The position numbers and the translations under genes were made by a program. From Escherichia coli (GTDB lineage Bacteria > Pseudomonadota > Gammaproteobacteria > Enterobacterales > Enterobacteriaceae), in the NCBI RefSeq assembly GCF_044324875.1, contig NZ_CP172185.1: DNA of 64,000 bases. One strand, 5' to 3'. A model generated the notes under the pieces. That model worked only from the letters and a program-made list of their open reading frames with translations. It searched no databases and had not been told where the DNA came from. Of the stretch, positions 12,082 through 47,804 are shown one piece after another; the first letter of the stretch is position 1, and the number at the start of each line of letters is the position of its first letter.

Positions 12082-12157
12082 GCCCGGATAGCTCAGTCGG
12101 TAGAGCAGGGGATTGAAAATCCCCGTGTCCTTGGTTCGATTCCGAGTCCGGGCACCA
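12082..12157 (+). tRNA. pheU: tRNA-Phe (anticodon GAA)
   Basis: GCCCGGATAGCTCAGTCGGTAGAGCAGGGGATTGAAAATCCCCGTGTCCTTGGTTCGATTCCGAGTCCGGGCACCA; cloverleaf with GAA anticodon loop; pheU assigned from yjdC neighbourhood (sequence identical to pheV). Confidence 0.95.
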
Positions 12158-14068: not shown

Positions 14069-17000
14069 ATGGATGAAAATGCTTTAGGGTTTGCCTCATA
14101 CTGGCGCAACTCGCTTGCGGACGCTGAGTCAGGAAAGGGCAGTTTTGAACGGAAAGACGCCAAAAATTTCACTCACTGGCATGGGATAGCGGCGGGACGT
14201 CTTGACGAAGCGATTGTCAGTAAATTTTTTAAGGGAGAAAAAGACGATGTCGAAACGGTCGATGTCATCTTGCGCCCAAAAGTTTATTTCCGGTTACTGC
14301 AGCATGGTAAGGACCGTTCTGCAGGTGCGCCTGATATTGTTACCCCGATAGTGACGCCAGCCTTGCTAAGCCGTGAGGGTTTTTTATATCCGACGCCAGC
14401 GACCTCCATTCCCAGAGACCTGCTTGAACCTTTGCCAAAAGGAGCATTTTCGATTGGTGAGATTGGGCAGTATGACAAATACAAGACGACCCATACCACG
14501 TTCTCTATCAACTTTGATGACAGCGTTGATAAGACTGCCGAAACGGATGAAGAACGGGAAGAACGATATGCAGCCTTGCAGCAGGAGTGGCGTCAATATC
14601 TGGATGATTCAGAGAGGCTGCTGAAGAACGTTGCCGGCGACTGGATTAAAAATCCTGAGCAATATGAACTCGCTGAGCACGGTTATATTGTTAAAACGGC
14701 GCAATCTGGCGGTGCCAGTTTCCATATCCTTTCTCTTTATGATCACCTGCTTGTTTGCAATAAGGATGTGCCGCTCTTCAATCGATTCGCCTCGCGAGAG
14801 GTTCATGCTGCAGAGTCTTTGCTGGCCCCTGGAGCAAAATTCAGCGACAGGCTTGGACACTCCGGAGATAAGTTTCCGCTGGCAAAGGCTCAGCGCGATG
14901 CCTTAAGCCATTTTCTGGATGCTAAACATGGCGATATCCTTGCTGTTAATGGCCCTCCTGGAACCGGAAAAACCACGCTGGTGCTTTCTATCATCGCCAC
15001 GCAGTGGGCCAGAGCGGCTCTCGAAAAATCTGAGCCTCCGGTTATTATCGCGACTTCAACGAATAACCAGGCTGTAACGAACATTATTGAGGCATTCGGG
15101 AAAGACTTTTCGCAAGGTTCAGGTGCGATGGCCGGGCGATGGTTGCCAGAGCTGAAAAGCTTCGGCGCTTATTTTCCCTCAGGCAGCCGTAAAGCTGAAG
15201 CAGCCAAAAAATATCAAACTGAAGATTTCTTCAACCAGGTTGAGTCAAAAGAGTATGTAGAAGATGCACTGCTGTTTTATCTGGAAAAGGCTAAGGCAGC
15301 CTTTCCTGAAAAAGAGTGTTCATCCCCTGAAAAGGTCATTGAACTCCTGCATGGTCAGTTGGCAGCAAAATCCGAGCAACTGATAAGACTGAACGCAACA
15401 TGGCAAAAGTTAAGCCAGATTCGGGCTGCGCGTGAGCTTATTGCTAATGATATTGAGCAATATCTCAATAATTTAAATAAATTACTTTCCGGACAAGAAC
15501 AAAAAATCACTCTACTGAAGAGTGCTAAAACGGAATGGAAAAAATATCGCGCCGGTGAATCACTGATCTATTCATTATTTTCCTGGCTTCCGGCGGTTCG
15601 CAGTAAGCGACAGTACCAAATACAGCTGTTTCTCGAAGATAAATTAGGTGCGCTGATTGCAGGAAATCAATGGTCTGATCCTGAAACTATCGAACGTAAT
15701 ATTGATGGGCTGCTCAATTCCGCTGAGCGCGAGCAAACAACATACCGGCAGCAGATTGACTCCGCCCATGAAATCATTCTTAAAGAACAGCAGGCGGTTC
15801 AGGAGTGGCAGAGACTGGCTCTTGATTTAGGGTATGAGGGCGACGAGGAACTGAGCTTCTCACAGGCCGATGAACTGGCTGATACGCAGATTCGCTTCCC
15901 TGCATTTTTACTGACGACTCACTACTGGGAAGGTCGTTGGCTGATGGATATGGCCAGCATTGATGATCTGCAGGAAGAGAAGAAGAAAAAAGGCGCTAAA
16001 GGGGTAACCGCCCGTTGGCAACGTCGAATGAAACTCACTCCATGTGTGGTGATGACATGCTATATGCTGCCCGGCAATATGCAGATAAGTGAGCACAAAG
16101 GACAGCGTAAATTCGAGAAAAGTTATTTGTATGATTTTGCCGATTTACTCATTGTCGATGAAGCCGGGCAGGTGCTTCCTGAAGTGGCTGCTGCCTCGTT
16201 TGCATTAGCTAAGAAGGCATTAGTGATTGGCGATACGGAGCAGATCCCGCCAATATGGAGTATTGCTCCTGCGATTGATATCGGTAACATGCTGGCGGAA
16301 AAAATTCTGTCTGGCAGTACGCAAGAAGAGATTACCGAGAAATATACGGCAATCGCAGACCTTGGTAAAAGTGCCGCATCTGGCAGCGTTATGAAAATAG
16401 CGCAGTTTGCTTCGCGCTATCAATATGATCCCGAACTGGCTCGTGGTATGTACCTATATGAACACCGCCGGTGCTACGACAATATTATTGGATACTGTAA
16501 TACGCTCTGCTATCACGGTAAGTTGTTGCCTAAAAGAGGGCGTGAAGAGAGCAATTTAATGCCCGCAATGGGGTATCTCCATATTGATGGTAAAGGAGAG
16601 CTGGCAAGTAGTGGAAGTCGATATAATTTGCTTGAGGCTGAAACGATAGCGGTCTGGTTGGCAGAGAACCAGCAAAATATTGAAGCGCATTACGGTAAAT
16701 CGCTTCATGAAGTTGTCGGTATTGTGACGCCTTTTAGCGCTCAGGTATCCACTATCAAACAGGTGCTGGGCAAACAAGGTATCAGTACAGGCACGAATGA
16801 AAAGTCGCTCACAGTGGGCACCGTGCACTCTCTTCAGGGAGCGGAAAGAGCGATTGTGATATTCTCGCCAGTCTATTCAAAACATGAAGACGGCGGGTTT
16901 ATTGATAGCGATAACAGCATGCTGAATGTTGCAGTCTCCCGTGCGAAGGACAGTTTTCTGGTCTTCGGCGATATGGACCTGTTTGAGGTCCAGCCAGCCT

Positions 17001-17584
17001 CATCGCCACGGGGATTACTGGCAAAATACCTCTTTGAGTCAGAGAAGAATGCGCTCTCTTTTGATTATAAAGAGCGTAAGGATTTAAAAACCGCCGGGAC
17101 CAAAATCTACACACTTCATGGTGTGGAGCAACATGATAATTTCCTGAATCAGACATTTGAAAATACCAGTAAACACATCACGATAGTTTCTCCATGGCTG
17201 ACCTGGCAAAGGCTGGAGCAAACCGGTTTTCTTGATTCCATGATTGCGGCGTGTTCACGTGGAATTAACGTCACGATAGTCACTGACAGAAGCTACAACA
17301 CTGAACATAATGATTTTGAGAAGCGAAAAGAGAAGCAGCAGAACTTTAAAGCGGCGCTGGAGAAACTGAATGCGCTGGGTATTGCTACAAAGCTGGTAAA
17401 CCGTGTTCATAGCAAAATTGTTATTGGTGATGATGGTTTGCTGTGCGTGGGATCGTTCAACTGGTTTAGTGCGACACGGGAAGCGCGATATGAACGATAC
17501 GATACATCAATGGTTTATTGCGGTGATAACCTGAAGGGTGAGATTGAGGCTATTTATAATAGTCTTGAGAGGCGGCAGGTTTAG
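14069..17584 (+). CDS. Large fusion protein: unknown N-terminal domain + Upf1-like SF1 helicase core + C-terminal PLD-family (single HKD) nuclease domain; candidate defence protein
   Basis: 1171 aa; Walker A GPPGTGKT (~aa 295), Walker B/motif [11 protein letters not shown] (~aa 695), motif V-like [11 protein letters not shown], motif VI-like VAVSRAKD, then HSKIVIGDD (HxK(x)4D) near aa 1114; first cargo gene after island integrase. Confidence 0.9.
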
Positions 17585-24104: not shown

Positions 24105-25310
24105 AAAAGAAATTTTAGCGCAGAGTTTAAACGCTAATCCGCCCAACTGGTTGTTGACCAGAACTATACGGTGGCAGATGCCGCCAAAGCTATGGATATC
24201 GGCCTTTCCACAATGACAAGATGGGTCAAACAACTGCGTGATGAGCGTCAGGGCAAAACACTAAAAGCCTCTCCGATGACACCAGAACAAATCGAAATAC
24301 GTGAGCTGAGGAAAAAGCTACAACGCATTGAAATGGAGAATGAAATATTAAAAAGGCTACTGCACTCTTGATGTCAGCCTCCCTGAACAGTTCTCTATAA
24401 TAGGGAAACTCAGGACACGTTATCCTTTGGTCACTCTCTGTGTAGTGGATCGGTAATTCAGGACACCTCATTTTCACTGTTAATGTTAAAAAGTGAAAAT
24501 GAGGTGATGCATGATCAAAACTCGTCGGACTAAACGTACCTTTTCCCCGGAGTTCAAGCTTGAAGCTATCGAACAGGTGGTTAAATACCAGCGTGATGTC
24601 AGAGAAGTCGCGCTGGCACTCGAGCTCAACCCTGACCATTTGCGTAAATAGATACGGTTGTATAAGCAGGAACTTCAGGGTATTGAGCCCGCTGGTAATG
24701 CTATTACTCCTGAACAACGCTAAATTAAGCAGCTTAAAGCGCAGATAAAGCGCCCTGAGATGGAAAAAGAAATACTAAAGCAGGCTGCCGTGCTGATGAG
24801 CGAAATCCCCGGGGAAACTGTCGCGCTAATCACACAGCTGAAAGCAAAGTGGCCAGTGCGGGTTCTTTGTCATTTATTCGGTATTCACCGTAGCATTTAT
24901 TACGCGCAGGTGAAGCGTCCTGTTAATGTGCAAAGAATTGAATTACGAAGTCGGGTGAGGGCTGTCCATGCTCTCAGTCGTGGCGCAGTCGGTAGCCGGG
25001 CAATCAGTCAGATGTTGCGCCATAGTGGCGTTGATGCAGGTCGGTGGCTGGCACGACGACTGATGCGGGAATGCGGGCTGACAAGTCGACAGCCAGTTAA
25101 ACATCACTACCGGGTAAACGAAGACAAAAGTCCGCCATTGCCAAATTTACTGAACCGGCAATTTCACCCCGCCGCACCAAACCGCGTCTGGTGCGGCAAC
25201 ATCAGTTTTATTCGCCTGCAGGACAAATGGTGTTATCTCGCACTCGTTGTTGATTTATATTCACGGCGGATTATCGGTTCAGCCCTCTCATTAACCGCTG
25301 ATGCTGAGTT
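24105..25310 (+). mobile_element. Nested IS3-family remnants: IS911-like orfA fragment followed by a second IS3-family orfA/orfB with in-frame stops, truncated by IS66 insertion
   Basis: [52 protein letters not shown] (orfA-like with stop); MIKTRRTKRTFSPEFKLEAIEQVV...; orfB part ends ...WCGNISFIRLQDKWCYLALVVDLYSRRIIGSAL at the IS66 boundary. Confidence 0.6.
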
Positions 25311-25347
25311 GTAAGCGTACAGCGAGGGCCGTATTGACGGGGATGTG

Positions 25348-26886
25348 TTATTCAGCTGGCAGTGCTATGCGCCACGGAAGCAGTTCGCTGACCCGGTTGA
25401 CCGGCCAGTCTGCTATGACGCCAAGCACATGGCGAAGGTAGCTTTCTGGATCCACGTCATTCAGTTTGCACGTCCCTATCAGGCTGTACAGTAGCGCTCC
25501 CCGCTCACCACCATGGCCAGAGCCGAAGAACAGGAAGTTTTTACGACCCAGACTTACCGCCCGCAGGGCATTTTCAGCGATGTTGTTGTCGATTTCCACC
25601 CAGCCATCGTTCGCATAGTACGTCAGTGCCGGCCACTGGTTAAGTGCGTACGCGAACGCCTTCGCCAACTCTGAGTGTCGCGACAGGGTCTTCATCTTTT
25701 CACGCAACCAGCTTTCCAGGGATTTCAACAGCGGTTTCGTTTTTCGCTGACGTTCAGCAAGCCGCTGCTCTGCCGGCATTCCCCTTATATCCGCCTCTAT
25801 GGCGTACAACTGACCGATCTGCTCCAGGGCTTCTTCCGTCAGTGCTGACGGGATGCGGACGTGCACATCGTGGATCTTTCGGCGGGCATGAGCCCAGCAG
25901 GCAGCTTCCGTTATCCCACCATTGCGATACAGCTCGTTGAACCCGGCGTACGCATCCGCTTGCAGCACACCGCTGAAGCAAGCAAGATGAGTCTGCGGAT
26001 GGATGCCTTTTCTGTCCGGGCTGTAAGCGAACCACACTGCAGGTGCCAACGCTGACCCGGCATTGCGGTCATCACGAACATACGCCCACAACCGCCCGGT
26101 CTTCGTCTTCTTATTACCCGGCATCAGTACCTGGACCGGGGTATCATCGGCATGGAGTTTGCCGTCAGTCATGACATAGCCATGAAGCGCCTCTTCCAGC
26201 GGAGACAGCAGCCGGCAGCATGCATCCACCCAGCCCGACAGCAGTGAACGGCTCAGCTCCACACCTTGCCGGCCGTATATTTCTGACTGGCGATACAGCG
26301 GGGTGTGCTCTGCATACTTCGAGGTCAGCACGCGGGCCAGCAGCCCCGGTCCGGCGATACCCCGCTCGATGGGCCGCGAAGGTGCAGGTGCCTGCACGAT
26401 GGCATCGCACTGAGTACAGGCATGTTTTTCCCGTACCGTCCGGATAACCCGGAAGGCGCTACGCATCAACTCCAGCTGTTCGGCGGTATCCTCGCCCAGA
26501 TAGCTCAGTGAACCGCCGCAGTTCGGGCAGCACGGCGCCGCAGGCAACAGTCGCTTTTCGTCACGGGGTAGTGATTCAGGGAACGGCTTACGGATGCGGG
26601 TCTGACGCAACGGACGCTGTACTGCCGGGTCATACACCCTACCAGTCAGCGTATCGCTCTCTTTCTGAAGCCGGTTCAGATCGGCTTCCATTTGTGCGAT
26701 ACGGCGGGAGACTTTTTCGGAACGACTGCCGAAGTTCATCCGGCGGAGTTTATCCAGCTGCGCCTGCAGATGGTCTATTTCGCGCTCCCGGTTGCTCAGC
26801 TTTTCCTGCAGGGCGTGGATCAGCGCTTCCTGTTCGGCCAGGCGCTGTTTCAGCAGGAAGATGTCGTCAGAAGAGATGTCGTTCAT
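25348..26886 (-). CDS. tnpC: IS66-family transposase TnpC
   Basis: 512 aa; leucine-zipper-like N-terminus, CxxC zinc-finger-like motifs, DDE core. Confidence 0.85.
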
Positions 26887-26935
26887 AAGCCCGTATTTTA
26901 CCGGGCTTATTCTGTGACAACCAGGATAAAGAGAT

Positions 26936-27283
26936 TTACAGCATGGTCAGGGAGGTCAGCAGCCGCTTAGGCTGTCGCCAGTCGATACCTTCCAGCAGCA
27001 TCGCCAGCTGCGCCTGTGTAAGGAACACTTTGCCATCACGGGCTGACGGCCAGGCGAAGCGCCCACGCTCCAGCCGTTTGGTCAGGAGGCACAGTCCGTC
27101 ACCGGTGGACCACAGCAGTTTAACCTGACTGCCGCTGCGGCCCCGGAAAATGAAAACATGGCCGGACATGGGATCGTCTTTCAGCGCCGTCTGTACTTTC
27201 GCAGCCAGGCCGTTGAAGCCATTTCTCATATCGGTGATACCGGCAACCAGCCAAATTTTGGTCCCGGAAGGTAAAGGGATCAT
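26936..27283 (-). CDS. tnpB: IS66 Orf2 (TnpB)
   Basis: 115 aa; [31 protein letters not shown] typical IS66 Orf2. Confidence 0.85.
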
Positions 27284-27681
27284 CGCTTCAGTTCCTGTAT
27301 CAGCAGAGTCAGGAGCTTTTCGCTGACATTGCCATTGAAGCGGAGCGTCCCGTGCCGGAACGTTACCTCACAGCTGATACTGAGGGTTTCCGGGTCCTCT
27401 GCGAGCGATTCTGGCTGTTCGGCAGCTGCATCGAGAGTCACAGGAAGTAGCTGGGGGCTCTCTGAAGAAGGTAATAGCAGCTTTCCCTCGCGCCATTGTT
27501 GTCGCCATTTGAACAACAGATTGGCGTTAATGCCATTTTCAAGAGCAAGTTTTGAGATGGATATCCCGGGTTCACAGGAGGCAGCAACGAGCTGCTGTTT
27601 AAATTCGGGAGGATAATTAGGGCAGCCTTTTCGCCTGCCGGGAGTCACATTTTTCTGCATATCTGACACTTTGGTTCCCAC
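27280..27681 (-). CDS. tnpA: IS66 Orf1 (TnpA)
   Basis: 133 aa; overlaps tnpB start by 4 bp. Confidence 0.8.
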   Translation of the reverse strand: MGTKVSDMQKNVTPGRRKGCPNYPPEFKQQLVAASCEPGISISKLALENGINANLLFKWRQQWREGKLLLPSSESPQLLPVTLDAAAEQPESLAEDPETLSISCEVTFRHGTLRFNGNVSEKLLTLLIQELKR

Positions 27682-27748
27682 TACTTATTTGGTGGACACC
27701 ACTTTGTCTAATTCGTCAGATTCTGACCAGACGGTTCAGGCTGTACGC

Positions 27749-29833
27749 TTACGCCTGACCGGTGTCTCTGGTGACATATTCCGGAGCTCCGGAGAGAGTA
27801 AAGGTAACGCGATCATCGGCAGAAGCATCTCCATACTGCAGATGCCCGTCGTTGGGGATCATGGCCAGTTTGCCGTAATAGCGATACACATTGTATTCAT
27901 CCTGTGTATAGCCAAAGAAGGACTGATTATTCAGTTGTGAACCCGACAGGCTGACAAACTCGCTGGCAAGAAGATGACTTCCCGTATTATCCAGTTTGTT
28001 CGCGTCAATCAGCAGATTATTACCGGCCGAAATTCTGGCATCCCCCCCTGTTGCACCAACATCGACGCGTGTTGTGCCAGTCAGAAATTTCCGGGTGGCT
28101 CCCTTTTCAGTCGGAACGGCCCATGCCTCAAAACCACCACCGGCAGTACCGCTCCAGGACTTCACATAATATCCCCATCCATTTTCACCTAAATCGCCCA
28201 CTCTGACTGAAACAGAATTTACACCATCAGGTACTGCGACATTCTCAACCGGAATGTATGATTTTGTCTCATTTATACCCTCCCGCTGATTCAGTAAATG
28301 TCCGGTTCTGATGGTGATATCACCGCGGGTGGTTTCGATATTCCCGGAGGTATTAATCACTTCAGCATTCGCGGCACCACTGACATCTTTCTGCATCACC
28401 AGGCTGTAACCCGCCAGCATATCGCCGTGATGGTTCCGGATGGTGCTGGCAAACAGCGAGAGGTTATTGCCCGCATACAACAGTGCGGTGTTAATGACTG
28501 CCCCGGCGACCGTTAACACCAGACTACCCGTCGTGCCGGTAAAACCGTCGAGAGTGATATCTCCCCTGCTGGTCAGGCTGACGTCCCCGCCTGCCTGCAG
28601 GCTGCCGCTGGCATTCATCGCAATCCCGCTGCCGCTCAGTGCCGTGGTGCCGTTGCCGGCGGTCAACTGGCCATTGTTGGTCAGCCTGCCTGCAGCATTC
28701 AGCGTGATACCGTTGCCCTGCAATGTGGCGCCATTGGTAATATCACCCTGGCTGCTGACGGAGAGTTGTTTATTCGCGGCGATAACGCCCTGTGCGGTCA
28801 AACCACGTGTGAGCTTCAGCGTCAGGTTACCGAGTGCAACCAGCTGGCCCGCGCCGCTGAGCGAGACCATTTCAGCAAGCATATCACCGCCGCTGAACAC
28901 CTTCCCGCCGGCGTTGTTCAGGCTGTTCCCTTTTATTGTCAGGCCCTGATTACCCAGCAGCGTGCCGCTGTTGGTGATGGTCTGCGTGTTGACGTTCAGT
29001 TGTGCAGCCTGGAACAGGCCACGGTTGGTCAGACTGTTACCTGTGAGCGTTGCCTGATTCGCCGCCATCACAGTGCCATTACCGGCAAGCTTCGCCACGT
29101 TCAGCAGCAGGTCAGTGGCCTGTAGCCAGCCACTGCCACTGTAGTCCGGCGTGGTGAACGTCAGCTCACCGCCGGAAAGAATCTTGCCACTGTTGTGGGC
29201 CTGCGTTGCCGCGCTGAGCGTGGTTTTACCGTTGCCCTGAATGGTGCCGTCATTAGTCAGCACAGGTGCAGAAAGCGCTGATACGTTCTGACTGAGAAGC
29301 ACACCGCTGGTCTGGTTGGTCAGGGCATTCAGCAATGTAAGAGTCAGCCCGCTGTCGCCCTGCACACGACCTGAGTTGGTCAGCGAACTGGCGGTGATTC
29401 GGTTATCCGCCCCCTGAAGCTGCCCACTATTGCTGATGTCTCTGGCGTTGACGTTTAATGTACCGCCTGTCAGCATTTTACCGTGCTGTTGCAGATTACC
29501 ACTGAGTGTCACATTCAGGCTGTTAACACCACTGATTTCGCCACCGTTGCTGAGCGAATCACCATTCACTTCCAGCGTCTTCGCGCTGATTAATCCCTTG
29601 TTACCCAGCACTTTCCCGGTAAGGCGGGCATCGCCCAGGGCGGTAATTTTGCTGCCGGTGGCAGCAATAACATCGCCACTCAGGGTCAGAGCCAACTCCA
29701 GCGCACTCTGAACAGCACCGCTGCTGGTCAGGCTGCTGGCATCCAGAGTAATGTTCTGCCCCTGAATCCGGCCGCTGTTGGTCACATCTCCTGCGCTCAG
29801 CGTCAGCGAGTTCTGGCTCGATCCGCGCACCAC
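27749..29833 (-). pseudogene. Fragment of a large filamentous-haemagglutinin/CdiA-like repeat protein (two-partner-secretion exoprotein), truncated at both ends
   Basis: 694 aa of degenerate ~20-aa repeats rich in TLSG/LTNSG/IQGNG/NAL motifs; no signal peptide or TPS domain; 3' end abuts IS66 copy 1; 5' end abuts the GC-rich block. Confidence 0.6.
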
Positions 29834-29872
29834 TTATCCCGAACTGCGTCAGCAGTTGATCGGAGGTACACC

Positions 29873-30424
29873 ATGAAACGCATTCTGACCCGTGGCCTGG
29901 CGCTGCTGATGCTGATGCTCGCCGGCTGCAGCATCGAGGTCACCGAGTACCGGCAGCAGCAGCCCGCCCTCGACATCTTCCACTATTTTCAGGGTCGAAC
30001 CGAGGCGTGGGGGATGGTGCAGGATCGCCGCGGTAAACAGCTGCGCCGCTTCCATGTAGCGATCGATGGCGACGTCGTCGGCGACACCCTGACGCTCCAT
30101 GAGCGCTTTGTCTATGACGATGGCGAGAAACAGCAGCGGGTGTGGCGCATTCGCCGCACCGGCGATAACCATTATCAGGGCACCGCCGGGGATATCGAAG
30201 GCGTGGCCAGCGGCCAGGCGGCAGGCAATGCCTTTCACTGGCGCTACAGCATGAACGTCGAGGCCAGCGGCAGCCGGTGGCTGCTGCACTTTGACGACTG
30301 GATGTTCCTGCAGGACGGCAGCCATTTGTTTAACAAAACCGAGATGAAGAAATTCGGCATTACGGTGGCCACCGTGACCCTTTTCTTTACCCGAACCACA
30401 GCAGAAGAGAGGACAGCGCCATGA
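29873..30424 (+). CDS. Lipoprotein (DUF3833-like)
   Basis: 183 aa; lipobox MKRILTRGLALLMLMLAGCS; overlaps next gene start by 4 bp. Confidence 0.55.
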   Translation: MKRILTRGLALLMLMLAGCSIEVTEYRQQQPALDIFHYFQGRTEAWGMVQDRRGKQLRRFHVAIDGDVVGDTLTLHERFVYDDGEKQQRVWRIRRTGDNHYQGTAGDIEGVASGQAAGNAFHWRYSMNVEASGSRWLLHFDDWMFLQDGSHLFNKTEMKKFGITVATVTLFFTRTTAEERTAP

Positions 30425-38411: not shown

Positions 38412-39050
38412 TCAGTCTGTGGGGCGCAGCCGGGCCTTCAGCTCTTCGGGGGTAAACGGCGGATCTCGCCGGTGCAGCATCGCATGGCAGTTGGGACATA
38501 CCGGGATCAGATCGGTTTCAGGGTTCAGGCGGTAGTCCTGCTTTATCCCGGCCAGCGGGATGAGATGGTGGATATGGATAAAGCCCTGGCCGATATCGCC
38601 ATAGCGGCTGGCCATATCCAGACCGCATACCTGACACTGGCAGCCATGCAGGCGAAGCGCCGCCTGACGAGCCTGACGGTCGCGCTCATAGCGATTGACC
38701 ACCACCTGCAACGCCGCCCCTTCCACGTACTCCATGGTCGTCTGCCCCTCATCGGGGAAAAGCGCAACCTCGTCATCGCCAGCGCCCTGCGACGCGATCG
38801 TAAATCCTTGCTCCAGTAACAGACGCACGCATTTTGATTTAATCCCCCCGCTGAAATCCGCCGGGGTAAATTCCGTTCCCGTCGCAAGCGTGGCCGCTAA
38901 CCCGACGATGGCTTTTGAAGGATACCGACGCCCCTCAAACTCGATCTCATACAGACGCGCGCTTTTAAACTGATGCGCAACGCCTGCATCGTAAGCGCGA
39001 ATGGCGGCGATGATGCATTCCCTGGATAAATGGTCCGGTAGTTTTTTCAT
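38412..39050 (-). CDS. HNH-family endonuclease with unassigned ~110-aa N-terminal domain
   Basis: 212 aa; C-terminal CQVCG...HIHHLIPLA...NPETDLIPVCPNCHAMLHRR HNH/zinc-finger core. Confidence 0.7.
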   Translation of the reverse strand: MKKLPDHLSRECIIAAIRAYDAGVAHQFKSARLYEIEFEGRRYPSKAIVGLAATLATGTEFTPADFSGGIKSKCVRLLLEQGFTIASQGAGDDEVALFPDEGQTTMEYVEGAALQVVVNRYERDRQARQAALRLHGCQCQVCGLDMASRYGDIGQGFIHIHHLIPLAGIKQDYRLNPETDLIPVCPNCHAMLHRRDPPFTPEELKARLRPTD

Positions 39051-39229
39051 AAGACATAGCTATCTGATGGCGCGAAGCTTGAGTATAAATAGAAAGCTAT
39101 GGTCTTTTCGAACAAATAACTGGCAGTGATAATTAAATCGCGATCCACGTAGAATCGCCGCATCTGGTAGGTTGATCGGCAAGGATTTTGCGAGCATCAT
39201 CGCATTTATTTAGCTGCCAATGTAACGCT

Positions 39230-40099
39230 ATGCCCTCCAGCACGACCCTGCAACACGCGATCGAGAACATCACCATCTGGCGCAAAGGCGAACAGCGTGC
39301 GCCGCATAAACCACTATTGCTGCTGTACGTCCTCTCGCAATACCAGCGCGGCCATGCGCGGATGTTCGACTACGCCTCGGAGATACGTGATGAGCTGCAT
39401 AGCCTGCTGGAACGCTTTGGCCCGCAGCGCCGCCAGTACCGGCCGGACATGCCCTTCTGGCGCCTGAAAGGCGACGGCTTCTGGGAGCTACACAACAGCG
39501 AACAGTGCTCAACCCAGGGCAGCCGACAGCCGCCCGGCAAAGAGCTGGAGCTCTGCCACGTCGCCGGCGGCTTTGATGAGCAGCATTTTGCGTTACTTAA
39601 CAGAAATAAGAAGCTGATCAATACCCTCGCCCATCAGATCCTCGAGGCGCACTTTCCGGAGAGTATTCAGGAAGAACTGGCTGAAGAGATGGGGTTTGAT
39701 CTGCTGCAGATCCGCAAAGAGCGCGACCCGCATTTTCGCCAGCAGGTGCTGCGCGCCTATAACTATGAGTGCGCTATCTGCGGCTTCAATATGCGCCATG
39801 ATAATACCTCCGTCGCCCTGGAAGCGGCCCATATCAAGTGGAAGCAGCACGGCGGCCCCTGCGAAATCCCTAACGGCCTGGCGCTCTGCGCGATTCACCA
39901 TAAGGCTTTTGATAAAGGATCCATTGGTCTGGATGAGGATATGCGCATCCAGGTTTCGCCGGCGGTGAACGGCGGAGGCATCGTTGGCAGGTTGTTCTGG
40001 GATTTTGATGGTAAGCCGATTACCTTGCCGATGGGGAAAGAATGCTATCCCCAGGAGGGGTTTGTGGCGTGGCACCGGCGGGAGGTGTTCAGGGGATGA
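39230..40099 (+). CDS. HNH-family endonuclease with unassigned ~190-aa N-terminal domain (candidate modification-dependent restriction enzyme)
   Basis: ORF 39188..40099; YNYECAICGF...AAHIKWKQHGGP...NGLALCAIHHKAFDKG HNH core; divergent from the neighbouring HNH gene. Confidence 0.7.
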   Translation: MPSSTTLQHAIENITIWRKGEQRAPHKPLLLLYVLSQYQRGHARMFDYASEIRDELHSLLERFGPQRRQYRPDMPFWRLKGDGFWELHNSEQCSTQGSRQPPGKELELCHVAGGFDEQHFALLNRNKKLINTLAHQILEAHFPESIQEELAEEMGFDLLQIRKERDPHFRQQVLRAYNYECAICGFNMRHDNTSVALEAAHIKWKQHGGPCEIPNGLALCAIHHKAFDKGSIGLDEDMRIQVSPAVNGGGIVGRLFWDFDGKPITLPMGKECYPQEGFVAWHRREVFRG

Positions 40100-41301
40100 G
40101 GGGGATGGTGATAAGCGGGTTTCGATGTTGAGCGTAGGGTTTAGGGATTGGGACTGTGTTTCGGAGAGGATTTCGTGGTTGATCAATGATTGGTCGTGGC
40201 TAGGTTAAAGGACTTATTTATTGATTGTTTTGATATTGATGCGAAGGCCTGACTCAAACATGCGATTTAACCTCATGATTTAAAATTGTTAATAATAAAC
40301 AACACCATCCTATACCAACACAGATACCAACACGAAAAATCACTGGTTTTCGGCATCGAACCAGGACAATCAGGTCCTGATTGAGATACCGAGCTCTGTT
40401 ACTCGTCATCTGCCTCGACAGGCTCCATTGCATCAAGTGGTACTCGCACCATCGCGATAGATCCAATCCGGATAAAAGCATCTTCCCCATCTATATCGGT
40501 TAACTGATATCGCTCACTTGATGCCGGATAATTGTGTCGATTGGCAACAGTGTACTCTTTCGTACAGCCAGAATGTGGCAGACTGAGGTGGAATAGATAA
40601 CGTCCGTATGCCCGCTGACCACCTCCGGGCGGGAGAGTGTGGTATCTGACATCATCATTTTTCCTTTTGGTTTATAAACGAAAACGCCAGCCGTATTCAG
40701 GCTGGCGTCAGGGTAATGAAGCGTGGTGAGTGATATTCACCGGTTCTGGTGCAGAAGCTGCAGATGACGCAGGGTACGGACATCCTCTCTGGCCTGTTCG
40801 ATACAGGGCAACAGTGCTGCCGATGTCAGTAGGCTATTTCCGGTTGATATACCCTGCCCGTAAATTACAGGGCAGGAATAGTATTATTAATTTCGGGAGA
40901 AGCTTAAGGTTGCCACATCGACAGTTTCATCACACAGGTTTTTGTCCTGAAATACTTTCTTATTTTTGACTTTAGCTAGCCATTGCCCGACATGAAGGGA
41001 GGGTACAGTGATGATACCGTCCTCATTACTTACAAAGGTAAGTTCTGCTTTATGAGCCGAATGTTTATGCTCTGCCGCATGAGTATGGCGGGATGATTTC
41101 AGATAACTGACAGAGTCAAGCTCCAGAGTGGCTCCGGCAAGCGGGGAAGTTTTATACAGAACTTTCAGCTTCACATCTTCACCGAAACGACTGATATCGG
41201 ATAACGGAATTAGACTGGCCCCCTGAATCTCCAGACAACCAGTATCACTTAAATAAGTGATAGTCTTAATACTAGTTTTTAGACTAGTCATTGGAGAACA
41301 G

Positions 41302-41667
41302 ATGATTGATGTCTTAGGGCCGGAGAAACGCAGACGGCGTACCACACAGGAAAAGATCGCAATTGTTCAGCAGAGCTTTGAACCGGGGATGACGGTCTCC
41401 CTCGTTGCCCGGCAACATGGTGTAGCAGCCAGCCAGTTATTTCTCTGGCGTAAGCAATACCAGGAAGGAAGTCTTACTGCTGTCGCCGCCGGAGAACAGG
41501 TTGTTCCTGCCTCTGAACTTGCTGCCGCCATGAAGCAGATTAAAGAACTCCAGCGCCTGCTCGGCAAGAAAACGATGGAAAATGAACTCCTCAAAGAAGC
41601 CGTTGAATATGGACGGGCAAAAAAGTGGATAGCGCACGCGCCCTTATTGCCCGGGGATGGGGAGTAA
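41302..41667 (+). CDS. insC: IS2 OrfA (InsC)
   Basis: [56 protein letters not shown]. Confidence 0.9.
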
Positions 41668-42530
41668 GCTTAGTCAGCCGTTGTCTCCGGGTGTCGCGTG
41701 CGCAGTTGCACGTCATTCTCAGACGAACCGATGACTGGATGGATGGCCGCCGCAGTCGTCACACTGATGATACGGATGTGCTTCTCCGTATACACCATGT
41801 TATCGGAGAGCTGCCAACGTATGGTTATCGTCGGGTATGGGCGCTGCTTCGCAGACAGGCAGAACTTGATGGTATGCCTGCGATCAATGCCAAACGTGTT
41901 TACCGGATCATGCGCCAGAATGCGCTGTTGCTTGAGCGAAAACCTGCTGTACCGCCATCGAAACGGGCACATACAGGCAGAGTGGCTGTGAAAGAAAGTA
42001 ATCAGCGATGGTGCTCTGACGGGTTCGAGTTCCGCTGTGATAACGGAGAAAAACTGCGAGTCACGTTCGCGCTGGACTGCTGTGACCGTGAGGCACTGCA
42101 CTGGGCGGTCACTACGGGCGGCTTCAACAGTGAAACAGTACAGGACGTCATGCTGGGAGCGGTGGAACGCCGCTTCGGCAACGAGCTTCCGGCGTCTCCA
42201 GTAGAGTGGCTGACGGATAATGGTTCATGCTACCGGGCTAATGAAACACGGCAGTTTGCCCGGATGTTGGGGCTTGAACCGAAGAGCACGGCGGTGCGGA
42301 GTCCGGAGAGTAACGGCATAGCAGAGAGCTTCGTGAAAACGATAAAGCGTGACTACATCAGTGTCATGCCCAAACCAGACGGGTTAACGGCAGCAAAGAA
42401 CCTTGCAGAGGCGTTCGAGCATTATAACGAATGGCATCCGCATAGTGCACTGGGTTATCGCTCGCCACGGGAATATCTACGGCAGCAAGCCAGTAATGGG
42501 TTAAGTGATAACAGGTGTCTGGAAATATAG
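41625..42530 (+). CDS. insD: IS2 OrfB (InsD) transposase, expressed by frameshift fusion with OrfA
   Basis: 301 aa, DDE integrase core; overlaps orfA in -1 frame. Confidence 0.9.
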
Positions 42531-43032
42531 GGGCAAATCCAGGAATGATTTCAAGCTCATCCCCTATTGGATACTGATAGAGTTGTGCTGGCATCTGCTG
42601 TTCACCAGGAATAAAAGATTTTGCATATTTAGTCACAAACTCACAGTATGCCACATCATTTCTGCCCTCCCGGCTGACAGGCTTCCATCCTGACGAGGTT
42701 CTCGACCAGTATCCCGGTTTCATTTTCGTTGACAGAACGTAGCTATTACCGTTGCCTGCAGTCTCAATTTTATAGACATAATCCGTGGATGTTGGCTTCA
42801 GCGTTATTGTCTCTTTCCCGTTATAAAGCCGGGGAGTTTCAAAGAAATCCCTTCTGTCAGGAATCGTGCCCTTTGAGGGGAAATTATGACCATAACCAAT
42901 CTCTGCGATAACGTTGTTCTCTGCCTGTTTGCCGGTAATCCAGACATCATGGGCCAGGACATGCCCCGATGCTGTCAGACAAAGAGCTAAGATATAGCCT
43001 GTATTTTTCATCATGATTTATTTCCTGAGAGG

Positions 43033-45003
43033 TTACCACTGATAACGGGTATAAAGACTGACAGTTCGGCCTGAAAGCGGCACACCTTTGCCATTCATGG
43101 CAAGCTTGTTGAAGGCATTATCCAGAGTTACTGACGCCTCAAAGCCTTTAACACTTACAGGCTTATAAGACAGTGAAAAGGAATGTATGGCATAGCCAGC
43201 CTGATAGGAGTCGCCTTTTTTCACATGCGTGGCTGATGCTGAAAGTTCAGCACGCCATCCGGCATAAACGCCTCTATGACCAACAGGTATGCTGATGTCA
43301 CTGATAAGTGTGTCAGGATTGCCGGAGCCCAGCCATTCCCTGCTGCTGGCATCCATACTTTCCGTCCGGTTATAAGAAAGCACCCAGTCAACATAATCAG
43401 ACTGGTAATTTCCCTGCATATCCCATCCCCAGATACGGGCCCGGGATACATTATAAGAATAAGAACGCATCCGTTTCATATCCACGCGTGTGGCAATATA
43501 GTTTCTGGCATCCGTTCCGAAATATCCGCCTTTTAACTGCAGCCGGTCATTGTCTGTAAGCAGGCCATCCAGTTGAATACCTGCGCCAATCTCACGGGTG
43601 ATGTTATTTTCTGGTTTCAGATTAAGGTTAGGAACCCAGTAATTGGGTTTACCCTTGCGGTAAAAATGTACATCATCCCTGTACATTTCTGCCATTGTGG
43701 GCGCTCGGAATGCAGAGGATATGGAGCCGTACATCATCAGCCAGTCTGTCGGTGAGACTGAAATCGCCGCCCTTGGGGACAGGCGTTCGGCTTTCAGTTC
43801 TCCGGCACGGGGATTGAAGCTCTTGTACCGGTCATAGCGGGAACCGACGATAATGTTAACAGGGTAGCTTTTCATTGTCATTTCATCCTGGAAATACAAC
43901 GATGTAAAGTCAATATTTCCTTCCGGATATAGTGTGGCAGAGCCTTCTGGCTTCTGCTGCTGACGGTAATATTCAGCGCCATAACTTAACTGATGGGCTC
44001 CCGGAAAAATCAGAGTATGACTCCTGTTGACAACATTAACACCGGAGGTTCTGTTGTTTCTCCATTCTGCCGTTTTGTTGTGACCGTTTGTCTTGATAGT
44101 GATATCACTGAGATATAACGTTGACTGTACATTGATGAGGCTGTTATCCACAGGAGCGTACTGGTACCAGAACTGTACGTCATTTTGTACTGTTTTTCTG
44201 TCACGCAGGCCGCTGTCACCATGTGTCTGAGTGGGATTGCCCGGTTCAGTGGTGTTATTCCGGTAGAGACGCAAGCTGGCACCTGCTTTGTTACTGTCTG
44301 TTATACCGACAGAGCCTTTCGCAAACAGGGCTGCAGGTTTTTCCTTGTTAGGTGCGCGCTCACCATCACTTTGATAGATATTACCTCTTTTACGCATAAT
44401 GACAGAAAGGAGCGCATCTGTTTTTCCGGTTTTACCGAACCAGGTGAGCCCCGAGCCTGTGCTGTGGTCACCACTGGCAATATTTCCCCACAGACTTAAA
44501 CCGTTTGTCTCTCCGGGGGGAAGGAAATCTGCTGCATCGGCAGTTCTGAAGTCCACTACACCTCCCAGCCCGCCACTGCCGTACAGACTGGAGTTTGGCC
44601 CGCGGACAACTTCGATACGTTTGACAAGAGCCGGATCCAGATAAGTGCCACTGCTTTTTGCCATGTCACTAAGTTGGCGGACGCCGTCAACAAGAACAAG
44701 TACCCCGCTTTTGTCATAGCCGCGTAGATTAAAGGTCTGCCCATTGGTCCGTCCTGCACCAGTCTGGCTGAGACCGGCAACACCTTTCAGCATGCCGGCC
44801 GATGTAACCGCATTCTGACTCCACGGTGTGTCATTCGTGACGACACTGACCATCGACGGCGTTTCAAATACCGTGTTCTGATTTCCTGTCGCGACAATGG
44901 TGATTGTATCTTTAGCCATAGAAGAATGACTGGTCGCTGCCTGTAGTCCCACCGGGACTATAATTAATGTACAAATGACAGTTCTGATTACATTCATATA
45001 CAT
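43033..45003 (-). CDS. TonB-dependent outer-membrane receptor
   Basis: 656 aa; signal peptide; plug-domain TonB-box-like region DTITIVATGNQ; C-terminal ...TRYQW terminal aromatic. Confidence 0.8.
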   Translation of the reverse strand: MYMNVIRTVICTLIIVPVGLQAATSHSSMAKDTITIVATGNQNTVFETPSMVSVVTNDTPWSQNAVTSAGMLKGVAGLSQTGAGRTNGQTFNLRGYDKSGVLVLVDGVRQLSDMAKSSGTYLDPALVKRIEVVRGPNSSLYGSGGLGGVVDFRTADAADFLPPGETNGLSLWGNIASGDHSTGSGLTWFGKTGKTDALLSVIMRKRGNIYQSDGERAPNKEKPAALFAKGSVGITDSNKAGASLRLYRNNTTEPGNPTQTHGDSGLRDRKTVQNDVQFWYQYAPVDNSLINVQSTLYLSDITIKTNGHNKTAEWRNNRTSGVNVVNRSHTLIFPGAHQLSYGAEYYRQQQKPEGSATLYPEGNIDFTSLYFQDEMTMKSYPVNIIVGSRYDRYKSFNPRAGELKAERLSPRAAISVSPTDWLMMYGSISSAFRAPTMAEMYRDDVHFYRKGKPNYWVPNLNLKPENNITREIGAGIQLDGLLTDNDRLQLKGGYFGTDARNYIATRVDMKRMRSYSYNVSRARIWGWDMQGNYQSDYVDWVLSYNRTESMDASSREWLGSGNPDTLISDISIPVGHRGVYAGWRAELSASATHVKKGDSYQAGYAIHSFSLSYKPVSVKGFEASVTLDNAFNKLAMNGKGVPLSGRTVSLYTRYQW

Positions 45004-45129
45004 TCATATACATCCGAAAACATATGTCGGTATTAAAATGTTATAACATAACATTTTATTTATGCAACTCTGATTATGTAGCGTTCAGTGATGAACTGTT
45101 AATAATATTCTGTCGATCCGCTAAGTGTC

Positions 45130-45778
45130 AGTGTATGCGGTAAGCCTGCCCTTGAGTCACTGTTTGGCAACTGCTACATCTAAGGTGACGTTATCCGCTG
45201 ACATCGATATTCCCGTGGTGAGAGATAACCTAACGCACTATGCGGGTGGTTCTCATTGTAATTCTCGAACGCCTATGCAAGGTTATGCAATGCCGTTATT
45301 ACATTCGGTTTCTGTATGAACGCAATGTAGTCTTCCTTCATCGTTTTCACTAACCTTTCTGCCATTCCATTACTCTGAGAGCTGCTGATTGCCGTTGTGC
45401 AGGGCTCCAGATCCAACTCTCTGGCGAACTGCCGTGTTTCATGCGCTCTATACGCTGAACCGTTATCTGTCAACCACCGGATGGACTGTTCCGGTACTTT
45501 ATCGCCAAAGAGTTTTTCTATCGCTCCTAACATCACATCCTGCACTGTCGCTTTATTGTAACCTCCCGTATTGGATGCCCAGTCGATAGCTTCACGATCG
45601 CAACAGTCCAGAGCGAACGTAACCCGGACTTTTTCGCCATCATCGCAACCGAACTCAAAGCCATCAGAACATCAACGCTGGTCGCTTTCCTTACCGATAT
45701 TCGGCCTTTATGTTCCCGCTGCGGTCGTGATGGTTTGTCATGTAACAACAGGATATTTTCGCTCATTATCCGGTAAAC
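45130..45778 (-). mobile_element. IS2-like (IS3-family) orfB remnant, separated from its orfA part by IS66 copy 2
   Basis: ...[76 protein letters not shown]... parallels IS2 InsD; frame breaks present. Confidence 0.6.
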
Positions 45779-45809
45779 GGTAAGCGTCAACGGAGCACCG
45801 TATTGACGC

Positions 45810-47423
45810 TTATTTATTGGTGAGTACTACGTTCCATGGCAGGAGTTCATCAACTCGGTTGGAAGGCCATTCCGGCAGTACGCTCAGGATATGGCGCAGA
45901 TACGCTTCCGGATCGATACCGTTCAGACGGCAGGTGCCGATCAGCCCGTACAACAGTGCTCCACGCTCGCCGCCGTGATCGCTGCCAAAGAACATAAAGT
46001 TTTTCTTTCCGAGACAGACTGCACGAAGCGCTCTTTCCGCAGCATTATTATCCGCCTCCGCCAGACCGTCATCACTGTAATAACAGAGGGCATCCCACTG
46101 ATTCAGTACATAGCTGAACGCTTCGCCCAGTCTGGATTTTTTCGACAGCGTACCATTCTTCTCCACCATCCATTCATGCAGCGACGTCAGTAACACTTTG
46201 CTTCGCTGCTGCCTGACGGCAAGACGCTCTGACTCCGCTAATCCCCGTATTTCATCCTCGATGGCGTACAGTTCACTGATTCGCTTCAGGGCTTCTTCTG
46301 CCGTCGCACTTTTGCTGCTGATGTATACATCGTGGATTTTTCGCCGGGCATGGGCCCAGCACGCAACTTCTGTCAGTGCACCACCTTCACGTTCTGCACT
46401 GAACAACCTGTCGTAACCTGTGAACGCATCCGCCTGCAGGATACCCCGGAAGGGGCGGAGGTGTTGCTCCGGGTGTTTCCCCTGCCGGTTCGGCGAGTAC
46501 GCGAACCAGACCGCTGGAGGAGATGACGAACCCACATTGCGATCATCCCGGACATACGTCCAGATACGCCCTGTTTTCGCCTTTTTCTGACCCGGTGCCA
46601 GTACCTTTACCGGTGTGTCATCAGTGTGAACCTTGCGGGTGTTCATTACATAACGGTACAGGGCATCATTCACCGGTGTCATTAACTGGCAGCACGCGTC
46701 AACCCAGTTGGAGAGTAAGGCCCGGCTCAGTTCGACACCCTGGCGGGCAAAGATTTCACTCTGACGATACAGTGGCAGATGTTCGCAGTATTTTCCCGTT
46801 AACACGCGGGCAAGTAATCCGGGGCCCGCGATACCACGCTCTATCGGGCGGGACGACGCCGGTGCTTCAACAATACAGTCACATTTTGTACAGGCTTTTT
46901 TTACCCGTTCTGTGCGGATCACTTTCAGGGCACTGCTCACCAGTTCCAGCTGTTCAGCGCTGACTTCCCCCAGATAATCCAGCTCACCGCCACACTCCGG
47001 GCAACAGCTTTCTTCTGGCTCCAGGCGGTGTATTTCACGGGGAAGGTGTGCCGGTAACGGACGACGATGGCGCGACTGTCGCAACTGGCGGGGAACCTGA
47101 GGATCGTCTTCCCGCCCACTGTAACGATCGCTGTCCTGTTCACGTTGTTTCAGCAGAGCCTCAGCCAGTTCAACTTCACGACGCAGTTTTTCAGAACGGG
47201 GACCGAACAGCATCCGGAGCAGTTTTTCTATCTGAGCCCGCAGATGTTCTATTTCCCGTTCATCTTCTTCGATCTTTTCTTCGGCACGTGTCAGTGCAGA
47301 GCGCAGGAAGGCTTCCCTCTCTTCAACCAGACTCAGTTGCTGGTCTTTCTGACGGAGGGCTTCAGCCTGCTCAGAGAGCAATCTTTCCAGCTCTGCGATG
47401 CGAATGAGGTATTTCTGACTCAT
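45810..47423 (-). CDS. tnpC: IS66-family transposase TnpC (copy 2)
   Basis: 537 aa; colinear with copy 1 TnpC but diverged. Confidence 0.85.
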   Translation of the reverse strand: MSQKYLIRIAELERLLSEQAEALRQKDQQLSLVEEREAFLRSALTRAEEKIEEDEREIEHLRAQIEKLLRMLFGPRSEKLRREVELAEALLKQREQDSDRYSGREDDPQVPRQLRQSRHRRPLPAHLPREIHRLEPEESCCPECGGELDYLGEVSAEQLELVSSALKVIRTERVKKACTKCDCIVEAPASSRPIERGIAGPGLLARVLTGKYCEHLPLYRQSEIFARQGVELSRALLSNWVDACCQLMTPVNDALYRYVMNTRKVHTDDTPVKVLAPGQKKAKTGRIWTYVRDDRNVGSSSPPAVWFAYSPNRQGKHPEQHLRPFRGILQADAFTGYDRLFSAEREGGALTEVACWAHARRKIHDVYISSKSATAEEALKRISELYAIEDEIRGLAESERLAVRQQRSKVLLTSLHEWMVEKNGTLSKKSRLGEAFSYVLNQWDALCYYSDDGLAEADNNAAERALRAVCLGKKNFMFFGSDHGGERGALLYGLIGTCRLNGIDPEAYLRHILSVLPEWPSNRVDELLPWNVVLTNK

Positions 47424-47453
47424 GACCGTTTTTATAATGCGGTCAGGAGTTTT

Positions 47454-47804
47454 TTACAACATTGTCAGTGAGTTACGGCTGGATGTTTTTGGCTGACGCC
47501 AGTCCAGCTTATCGAGGAGCATTGCCAGTTGCGAGCGGGTAATGGATACCTTGCCGTCACGTACCGCAGGCCAGATAAACTGGCCTTCCTCCAGGCGTTT
47601 GGTGAACAGGCACAGACCATCAGCATCAGCCCAAAGAATTTTGACGGTGTCACCCCGTCGGCCACGGAAGATAAACAGGTGACCGGAGAAGGGATTATCA
47701 TTCAGCACATGTTGTACCTGTTCTCCCAGTCCGTTGAAGGATTTACGCATATCGGTAACGCCGGCAACGAGCCAGATACGGGTACCTGATGGGAGTGAGA
47801 TCAT
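47454..47804 (-). CDS. tnpB: IS66 Orf2 (TnpB, copy 2)
   Basis: 116 aa; MISLPSGTRIWLVAGVTDMRKSFNGLGEQVQ. Confidence 0.85.
   Translation of the reverse strand: MISLPSGTRIWLVAGVTDMRKSFNGLGEQVQHVLNDNPFSGHLFIFRGRRGDTVKILWADADGLCLFTKRLEEGQFIWPAVRDGKVSITRSQLAMLLDKLDWRQPKTSSRNSLTML

Follow-up and report, generated by a model that had tools for sequence, protein, structure and literature searches.

The window, the 64,000-nt stretch of E. coli DNA from which all source-genome evidence is taken, carries a complete copy of the IS66-family element ISEc8 in a mosaic island that occupies the tRNA-Phe (pheU) site. The main features are listed in Table 1. This element has the tnpA-tnpB-tnpC gene order of the family, with a DDE-type TnpC, and its products match HTH_Tnp_1, TnpB_IS66 and DDE_Tnp_IS66 in Pfam, together with zf-IS66, LZ_Tnp_IS66 and the C-terminal element. 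The NCBIfam model transpos_IS66 scores 457 bits (cut-off 180), and homologues bear the RefSeq name 'IS66-like element ISEc8 family transposase'. Its length of 2,442 bp and terminal repeats starting with GTAAGCG are those of ISEc8.

To the left lies an IS3-family relic. Its degenerate orfA fragments were placed from the 99.9%-identical locus of B771 (L001 7837-8341, mapped to the window at +16310). The orfB remnant contains HTH_21 and the first 48 of 102 positions of rve (Pfam), and it covers positions 73-259 of the 369 in NCBIfam transpos_IS3, breaking off at 259; an uninterrupted relative in strain E20 runs beyond this truncation point. To the right lies a 2.07-kb internal piece of cdiA, with 98.3% identity to intact cdiA as found in strain N1 and roughly 100 further records. 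This piece holds a Fil_haemagg repeat and consists of the FHA-repeat segment only, lacking both the N-terminal secretion (TPS) domain and the C-terminal toxin, so it does not represent a CdiA exoprotein. No cdiB or cdiI was found near the fragment, and RefSeq flags a homologue as missing both termini. The preliminary description, which saw two unrelated truncated genes joined by the element, is thus confirmed. The cdiA fragment ends on its far side in an IS-independent joint with 8 bp of microhomology, located by three-way comparison of the window, strain LH50-c and intact cdiA.

Table 1. Features at and around the ISEc8 locus (window coordinates)
Feature	Position	Strand	Details
Degenerate orfA fragments, IS3-family relic	24147-24651	+	annotation of B771 locus
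IS3-family orfB, N-terminal fragment	24760-25310	+	cut by ISEc8 left end
Left flanking 8-mer	25303-25310		GCTGAGTT
Complete ISEc8 (IS66 family)	25311-27752	-	2,442 bp; Pfam, NCBIfam, RefSeq product names, B771 match
ISEc8 terminal inverted repeats	25311-25323 and 27740-27752		13 bp, perfect; GTAAGCGTACAGC at both termini
ISEc8 tnpC	25348-26886	-	
ISEc8 tnpB	26936-27283	-	
ISEc8 tnpA	27280-27660/27681	-	
Putative crossover interval	27396-27752		IS positions 2086-2442, 357 bp; identical in both haplotypes
Right flanking 8-mer	27753-27760		GCCTGACC
ISEc8 junction strings			ATGCTGAGTTGTAAGCGTACAGC and GTACGCTTACGCCTGACCGGTG
Internal cdiA fragment, pseudogene	27753-29819	-	about residues 876-1564 of 3,236-aa CdiA
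Microhomology TCTGGCTC	29812-29819		8 bp; joint of cdiA with 3' end of hypothetical gene upstream of DUF3833
Hypothetical-gene 3' remnant, then DUF3833 gene	29820-30424	+	DUF3833 gene 29873-30424
Second IS66-family element ('copy 2')	45780-48311	-	2,532 bp; inserted in IS2-like orfB relic
Duplication flanking 'copy 2'	45772-45779 and 48312-48319		GGTAAACG; perfect, 8 bp

The 8-bp target-site duplication expected of the IS66 family is absent from this ISEc8 copy, as had been claimed: the two flanking 8-mers differ. Three other ISEc8 copies of 2,442 bp with the same termini all carry perfect 8-bp duplications, in LH50-c (GGTTCAGC), strain 08_3449 (GCAAGACT) and a pO157 plasmid (ATCGGTAT), which indicates that the ends are correctly placed. 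Additionally, no direct k-mer of 5 or more is common to the 25 bp on either side, so shifting the ends by a few bases yields no repeat. Re-examination of the ends, proposed at the outset as a check that might reveal an intact repeat, therefore leaves them where they were. A simple insertion whose duplication is hidden by mis-set ends or by mutational decay would have the general prior on its side, most IS copies being simple insertions. It is hardly conceivable here, given the ends shared with three duplicated copies, the lack of a repeat nearby, the origin of the flanks in unrelated genes and the pairing of the same left junction with other right flanks elsewhere. Since the 8-bp rule is upheld in the other IS66-family copies examined, the missing duplication reflects the history of this copy, not its family.

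One such copy is the second IS66-family element of the window. Its perfect duplication had been correctly described, but the label 'copy 2' should not be taken to mean a second ISEc8: identity to ISEc8 is 64% at the DNA level and 63% for TnpC, which makes it a different element and rules it out as a recombination partner. Strain BEN2908 has its empty site. The idea that both elements struck one position in an IS3-family orfB also fails, the insertion points being at about profile position 250-259 for ISEc8 and about residue 92 of the IS2-like OrfB for the other.

Comparison with related genomes reveals what the cdiA remnant displaced. Both flanks of ISEc8 are collinear with the islands of LH50-c and GF4, and the order and orientation seen in LH50-c are retained, which rules out an inversion. 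Where the window has 2,059 bp of cdiA, LH50-c has 10,537 bp comprising the remainder of the IS3 relic, an S6 autotransporter protease, AbgT, YebF, a ROK regulator and GlpQ. The search for displaced DNA suggested in the preliminary description was thus productive, identifying about 10.5 kb in place of the remnant. The backbone common to LH50-c and GF43 resumes with the hypothetical-gene remnant and DUF3833, and the far right of the window matches B771-type islands such as GF4. In LH50-c the interval from ISEc8 to DUF3833 is free of cdiA, as is the downstream DNA of B771 and GF4, which rules out an origin by plain deletion from an island of either the B771 or the LH50-c type. In an adjacent deletion, the DNA abutting the element would formerly have lain farther along the same molecule, and this is not the case in those islands: the 10.5 kb were replaced, not just deleted. 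Of the earlier proposal of a deletion or inversion instead of a simple insertion, the rearrangement stands and the inversion does not. A scheme in which a single intramolecular event turned the LH50-c insertion into the B771 type was also considered, and the junctions are at odds with it.

Across the 5,426 complete E. coli genomes surveyed, the two junctions are distributed separately. The left junction, between the IS3 relic and ISEc8, occurs in 37 of them and is followed by four or more different right flanks, namely GGCGTTAT (B771 type, 11 genomes), TGACGAAC (BEN2908 type), CTTCATTA (AR_0085) and the GCCTGACC of the window. The right junction, between ISEc8 and cdiA, occurs in five (GF43, ES1, ST38, A65EC and I2). 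It is found with three different left flanks: that of the window, one with 37 bp less of IS3 (GF43, ES1, ST38, A65EC) and an IS256 fragment (I2). Both junctions together occur in none of the 5,426 genomes. Each of the two therefore exists separately elsewhere, and the parental forms themselves lack duplications, as do all genomes with either junction. With partners that vary in this way, the arrangement is poorly explained by one event of the window's ISEc8 copy, as had first been proposed. Three hypothetical ancestral junctions were sought in the same genomes, cdiA ending in GCCTGACC against the left end, the right end against GCTGAGTT and IS3, and IS3 ending in GGCGTTAT against the left end. 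None was found, the second having been searched again on its own after a concatenated query. An apparent GCCTGACC beside an IS66-family element in strain UTME-7 proved to be a BLAST extension artefact, the true flank being GATGACCA.

The IS termini are kept to the base in every junction variant. Junctions in the IS3 relic lie at 25273, 25283 and 25310, one of them belonging to an inverted copy of the same haplotype with a duplication. Small end-adjacent deletions measure 37 bp, and 113 bp in B771 relative to E20. Ending exactly at the IS termini, they suggest that transposase-made events may also have occurred at this locus. In strain I2, a hybrid IS lies between the IS256 fragment and the cdiA junction, which directly shows recombination between IS66-family elements at the right-junction site.

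Variation within ISEc8 marks a change of ancestry. The window copy has no mismatches to that of B771, and its left flank shows 8 differences from B771 in 9,000 bp. From the GF43 haplotype, which is matched at 100% at the cdiA junction only, it differs at seven sites, IS positions 814, 1035, 1184, 1382, 1926, 1965 and 2085; the ISEc8 copies of the EHEC chromosome and pO157 differ from the window copy by 15-16 substitutions. Differences from the GF43 type are concentrated in the element, with 7 in 2,442 bp of IS vs 4-7 in the right flank of about 13,000 bp (Fisher p 0.0004-0.003). Haplotype-informative sites end at IS position 2085 (window 27395), with B771-type IS leftward and GF43-type flank rightward, which places the switch within or at the edge of the IS.

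The arrangement probably arose when two island variants, each already without a duplication, were joined through a homologous crossover within the final 357 bp of ISEc8. One parent would have been a B771-type island, in which ISEc8 lies between the 5' and 3' parts of IS3 orfB, followed by the S6 peptidase and more genes. The other would have been a GF43-type island, in which ISEc8 is followed by the cdiA fragment, DUF3833 and more genes. RecA-type homologous recombination, with ISEc8 as the shared sequence, would have paired these junctions, each of a different age, and a second exchange farther right in the shared backbone would have completed a patch replacement. Because neither parent has a duplication, the recombinant has none either. 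The final 357 bp are identical in both haplotypes, so the crossover itself is invisible; that the switch was a homologous crossover, which way it ran, and whether the exchange took place between strains or inside a single genome are matters that we infer. Neither a reciprocal product nor a duplication-bearing parental junction was found in the 5,426 genomes. The preliminary description had favoured an IS66-mediated deletion or inversion. As the event that paired the junctions, homologous recombination is more likely than a transposase-made deletion, given the left-family IS haplotype, the ancestry switch near the right end and the IS-independent microhomology joint. Transposase-made adjacent deletion and recombination between IS copies remain candidates for the older origin of each parental junction.

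A different history, in which the window arrangement is ancestral, is rather unlikely but accounts for several of the same observations. A single event on a B771-type IS in its own lineage would have produced this arrangement, and GF43, by a further 37-bp deletion, and I2, by its hybrid IS, would be derived from it. Such an event might be the work of the transposase, by adjacent deletion or by intramolecular transposition from the right end of the IS, or an ISEc8-anchored, homology-facilitated illegitimate recombination closed at TCTGGCTC. In GF43 the left junction falls in this same IS3 relic with unchanged orientation, only 37 bp shorter, and a window-like junction is its simplest source. 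The exact termini in all variants and the nested deletions of 37 and 113 bp point the same way, and one anchored event would account for both the cdiA junction and the microhomology joint. However, on this history the GF43-lineage IS must have gained 6-7 private substitutions, against only 4-7 changes in the 13-kb flank. The excess of IS differences could be due to gene conversion that altered the GF43-lineage IS once it had descended from a window-like ancestor, but no other copy of that haplotype was found that might have served as donor. The absence of cdiA from the matching interval of LH50-c, B771 and GF4 defeats a plain deletion, and the accessible literature contains no report of adjacent deletion by IS66-family elements. 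It is also doubtful that the nested deletions ending exactly at the termini, of 37 bp, of 113 bp and on a kilobase scale, were made by ISEc8 rather than host recombination, with repeated targeting of about 40 bp in the IS3 relic. If so, they would count as natural evidence that IS66-family elements transpose intramolecularly and hop locally.

The novelty of the junction pair also invites a technical reading. A multi-copy repeat of 2.4 kb is a classic misjoin site, and assembly could have linked the ISEc8 of a B771-type island to a cdiA-adjacent ISEc8 elsewhere, which would explain a pair seen in 0 of 5,426 complete genomes though each junction occurs alone. Such an artefact is very unlikely: both sides are collinear with a single LH50-c backbone and the far right matches GF4, as a real replacement would give, and the IS shows a single clean haplotype.

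An ISEc8 copy with mismatched flanks is a familiar kind of rearrangement, and the phenomenon is already known. In Agrobacterium pAt15955, homologous recombination of two IS66 copies caused a deletion, and the one IS that remained has 8-bp flanks that do not match (Barton et al. 2019, PMC6778807). The parallel extends to the family, the 8-bp rule and a sole surviving IS with 8-mers from different parental copies. Unlike in the window, both parental copies of pAt15955 were available, each of them duplicated at its target site, and the survivor's flanks corresponded to theirs (PMC6778807). The window's parental junctions lack duplications, no reciprocal junction was found in the genomes surveyed, and the exchange looks like a patch replacement between island variants instead of a plain deletion between two direct repeats. 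Within E. coli, the ISEc8 copies of the EHEC chromosome and pO157 share length, termini and all three genes with the window copy; they are simple insertions with perfect duplications, which the window copy is not. IS-mediated adjacent deletion by intramolecular transposition is classic for IS1, IS903 and Tn3-type elements. The locus resembles these cases in that one junction is retained and the other replaced, with an exact IS terminus, no duplication and nested small deletions. It departs from them in that no related island was found to have cdiA downstream, and in that the IS haplotype favours recombination; IS66-family elements are not known to use this chemistry.

The island itself resembles the mosaic tRNA-associated islands of ExPEC and APEC (pheU, selC, leuX), with an integrase beside a tRNA gene, modules common to different tRNA sites, and many IS relics and pseudogenes. 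It is another combination of modules, without essential difference. The locus illustrates how one IS copy can act as portable homology that reshuffles such modules, here with the loss of an autotransporter protease module and the gain of a dead cdiA fragment. An absent target-site duplication may accordingly be inherited from older events and need not signal a recent one. Beyond annotation, in which the cdiA and IS3 pieces are pseudogenes and 'copy 2' is not a second ISEc8, the finding has little import.

The window contains an IS66-family element that is complete at 2,442 bp; RefSeq labels near-identical copies ISEc8. Its termini, GTAAGCGTACAGC at both ends, form a perfect 13-bp inverted repeat. 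Immediately outside it, the left 8 bp read GCTGAGTT and the right 8 bp GCCTGACC; the adjoining 25-bp flanks have no direct k-mer of at least 5 in common. Mis-set ends hiding a repeat are ruled out by ISEc8 copies on the chromosomes of strains LH50-c and 08_3449 and on a pO157 plasmid, which have exactly the same length and termini and carry perfect 8-bp duplications (GGTTCAGC, GCAAGACT and ATCGGTAT, respectively). Redefinition of the ends thus uncovers no direct repeat, and the observation that this element lacks a target-site duplication stands.

The assignment of the flanks to a truncated IS3-family orfB and an FHA/CdiA-like fragment was also confirmed by profile and cdiA matches. To the left of ISEc8 lies a degenerate IS3-family element. 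The right flank corresponds to approximately residues 876-1564 of the 3,236-residue CdiA protein of strain N1 and contains solely FHA-type repeats. This pseudogene has neither the secretion domain nor the toxin and is not accompanied by cdiB or cdiI. At its distal end it runs into the final 60-odd bases of a hypothetical gene located upstream of DUF3833, and close cdiA homologues (~98%) are found on both chromosomes and large plasmids.

Features of the window discussed in the text, with junction positions in the IS3 relic
Feature	Position	Strand	Detail
tRNA-Phe	12082-12157
AAA/helicase-like protein	14069-17584		1,171 aa
IS3-family relic, orfA fragments	24147-24651
IS3-family orfB, truncated	24760-25310		IS3 transposase profile broken off at position 259 of 369
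ISEc8 junction, GF43 type	25273
ISEc8 junction, LH50-c	25276-25283		inverted; perfect duplication GGTTCAGC; IS 1 base from that of the window
ISEc8 junction, window and B771	25310
ISEc8	25311-27752
tnpC	25348-26886	minus	Pfam DDE_Tnp_IS66; NCBIfam transpos_IS66
tnpB	26936-27283	minus	Pfam TnpB_IS66
tnpA	27280-27660/27681	minus	Pfam HTH_Tnp_1
Last 357 bp of ISEc8	27396-27752		candidate interval of ancestry switch
cdiA internal fragment	27753-29819		98.3% identical to part of cdiA
cdiA/hypothetical-gene joint	29812-29819		8-bp microhomology TCTGGCTC; no IS involved
HNH protein	38412-39050
Phosphorothioated-DNA-binding restriction endonuclease	39188-40099
IS2	~41211-42541
281-nt inverted repeat	42206-42486 and 45197-45477		71% complementary
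TonB-dependent haem-type receptor	43033-45003
IS2-like relic region	44900-49300
Copy 2, IS66-family	45780-48311		2,532 bp
Copy 2 duplication	45772-45779 and 48312-48319		GGTAAACG, perfect
Open reading frame	59160-60473	minus	437 aa

The other IS66-family element of the window, copy 2, illustrates the 8-bp duplication rule of the family, and its uninterrupted site is present in strain BEN2908. The preliminary description was right about its perfect duplication and wrong in treating it as a second copy of the same element: with 64% DNA identity to ISEc8, and 63% in TnpC, it is a different family member, which rules it out both as a second ISEc8 and as a recombination partner. Copy 2 sits at about residue 92 of an IS3-family (IS2-like, 68% at the amino-acid level) orfB relic; both IS66-family elements of the window lie inside IS3-family relics, at positions that are not homologous.

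Strain LH50-c has the fullest version of the island, with gene order and orientation as in the window. There, PhoX is followed by the IS3 relic, which carries an ISEc8 in inverted orientation as a simple insertion with a duplication, then by the intact IS3 remainder, an S6 autotransporter protease, AbgT, YebF, a ROK regulator, GlpQ and gene fragments, and finally by the hypothetical gene already mentioned, DUF3833, YbgA, a porin and xylA, on to ~59 kb. Relative to this arrangement, the window carries 2,059 bp of cdiA in place of 10,537 bp, and cdiA is absent from the corresponding interval in LH50-c, B771 and GF4. The collinearity rules out the inversion proposed earlier, and the replacement of 10,537 bp by cdiA rules out a plain deletion; what holds of that proposal is a rearrangement rather than simple insertion. 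A misjoin through the ISEc8 repeat is disfavoured by collinearity on both sides and is regarded as very improbable. Strain GF4, which has an island of the type named after B771, has in common with the window the left part, including the integrase and the AAA protein, and the far right part (ugpB, a phytase-like gene, MurR and PTS) but not the middle, a distribution that fits module replacement.

Junction searches across 5,426 complete E. coli genomes contradict a single event: the left junction (IS3 relic, GCTGAGTT, ISEc8 left end) occurs in 37 genomes and the right junction (ISEc8 right end, GCCTGACC-cdiA) in five (GF43, ES1, ST38, A65EC and I2), while none has both. The left junction is combined with at least four right flanks, namely GGCGTTAT with the remainder of IS3 orfB (B771 type), TGACGAAC adjoining another degenerate IS66-family element (BEN2908 type), CTTCATTA adjoining a GTPase gene (AR_0085), and cdiA in the window; none of these pairs constitutes a duplication. 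The B771-type right junction is present in 11 genomes and the BEN2908-type in 124, more than the 37 that carry the left junction; even in the B771 type, 113 bp of the IS3 element are missing compared with the uninterrupted relative in strain E20. The right junction has three left-flank forms: that of the window, an IS3 relic 37 bp shorter (GCGGATTA; GF43, ES1, ST38 and A65EC), and an IS256 fragment in I2. The I2 element (locus L006, 7618-10060) is a hybrid in which the left ~1,040 bp (~30% divergent from ISEc8) come from another IS66-family element and the rest is GF43-type ISEc8; this directly shows that different family members have recombined at the cdiA junction. The ISEc8 terminus is retained to the base in all variants.

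Comparison of haplotypes places different relatives on the two sides. ISEc8 of the window differs from the B771 copy at 0 of 2,442 sites, and the 9 kb to its left at 8 sites. Against GF43, A65EC and ES1, the element differs at seven sites (IS positions 814, 1035, 1184, 1382, 1926, 1965 and 2085), whereas the 13 kb to its right shows just 4-7 differences (Fisher p 0.0004-0.003 versus the IS). At six of the seven sites, every genome that carries the IS3 left junction shares the state of the window. Matches of 100% to the GF43 haplotype were confined to four genomes, where they lie at the cdiA junction; the diagnostic bases of this haplotype recur in the ISEc8-derived part of the I2 hybrid, and EHEC copies differ from that of the window at 15-16 sites. 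By this pattern the left flank and the IS, to at least position 2085, share ancestry with the B771 type and the right flank with the GF43 type; the switch falls within the final 357 bp of the element or at its edge.

The simplest account, which we consider probable, is homologous exchange via ISEc8 between two duplication-less island types. One exchange between two observed types would have used ISEc8 as the common sequence, and a second, in the common backbone further right, would probably have completed the replacement. Since each parent already lacked a duplication, the recombinant would lack one as well. The element's mediating role, as first suggested, would then be that of shared sequence, and transposase chemistry was probably not involved. 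The phenomenon is already well known. In Agrobacterium, recombination between two copies of IS66 has been documented experimentally (PMC6778807); it left a single IS whose two 8-bp flanks do not match, the same outcome as proposed here. It is less likely, though conceivable, that a window-like arrangement arose first and that the GF43 type was derived from it by a 37-bp end-adjacent deletion. The first step would have been either an event at the right end of the B771-type IS or homology-facilitated illegitimate recombination with its anchor in the IS and its closing point at TCTGGCTC. This order accounts well for the 37-bp relationship, but it requires that substitutions private to the GF43-lineage IS accumulated in an unexplained burst, and the genome collection contains no donor copy for them.

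The older junctions end exactly at IS termini, some of them 37 or 113 bp from an alternative position, which suggests adjacent deletions made by transposase; a nearby second insertion followed by recombination can also produce them. No reciprocal or duplication-bearing precursor junctions were found in the 5,426 genomes. Across genomes, ISEc8 meets one and the same IS3 relic at three different positions, all inside a 37-bp stretch, a clustering that might reflect a local hot spot or local hopping. In some B771-type genomes, such as GF4 (locus L015, 17175-19790), the IS66-family element ISCro1 lies within the tnpA region of this ISEc8, so that ISs are nested three deep.

The window from ~12 kb onward is a genomic island: aspA, dcuA, dsbD and yjdC/dicD are followed by tRNA-Phe and an integrase, and the gene order of E. 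coli K-12 identifies this as the pheU site. Its cargo includes a DUF4198 gene and a TonB-dependent haem-type receptor bracketed by a 281-nt inverted repeat, whose arms are the 3' part of IS2 orfB and the IS2-like relic, in a layout resembling a composite transposon. A phosphorothioated-DNA-binding restriction endonuclease adjoins an HNH protein, and the AAA/helicase-like protein has weak, below-cut-off matches to anti-phage helicase families. The 437-aa open reading frame weakly matches YadA-type trimeric autotransporter adhesins, far below cut-off.
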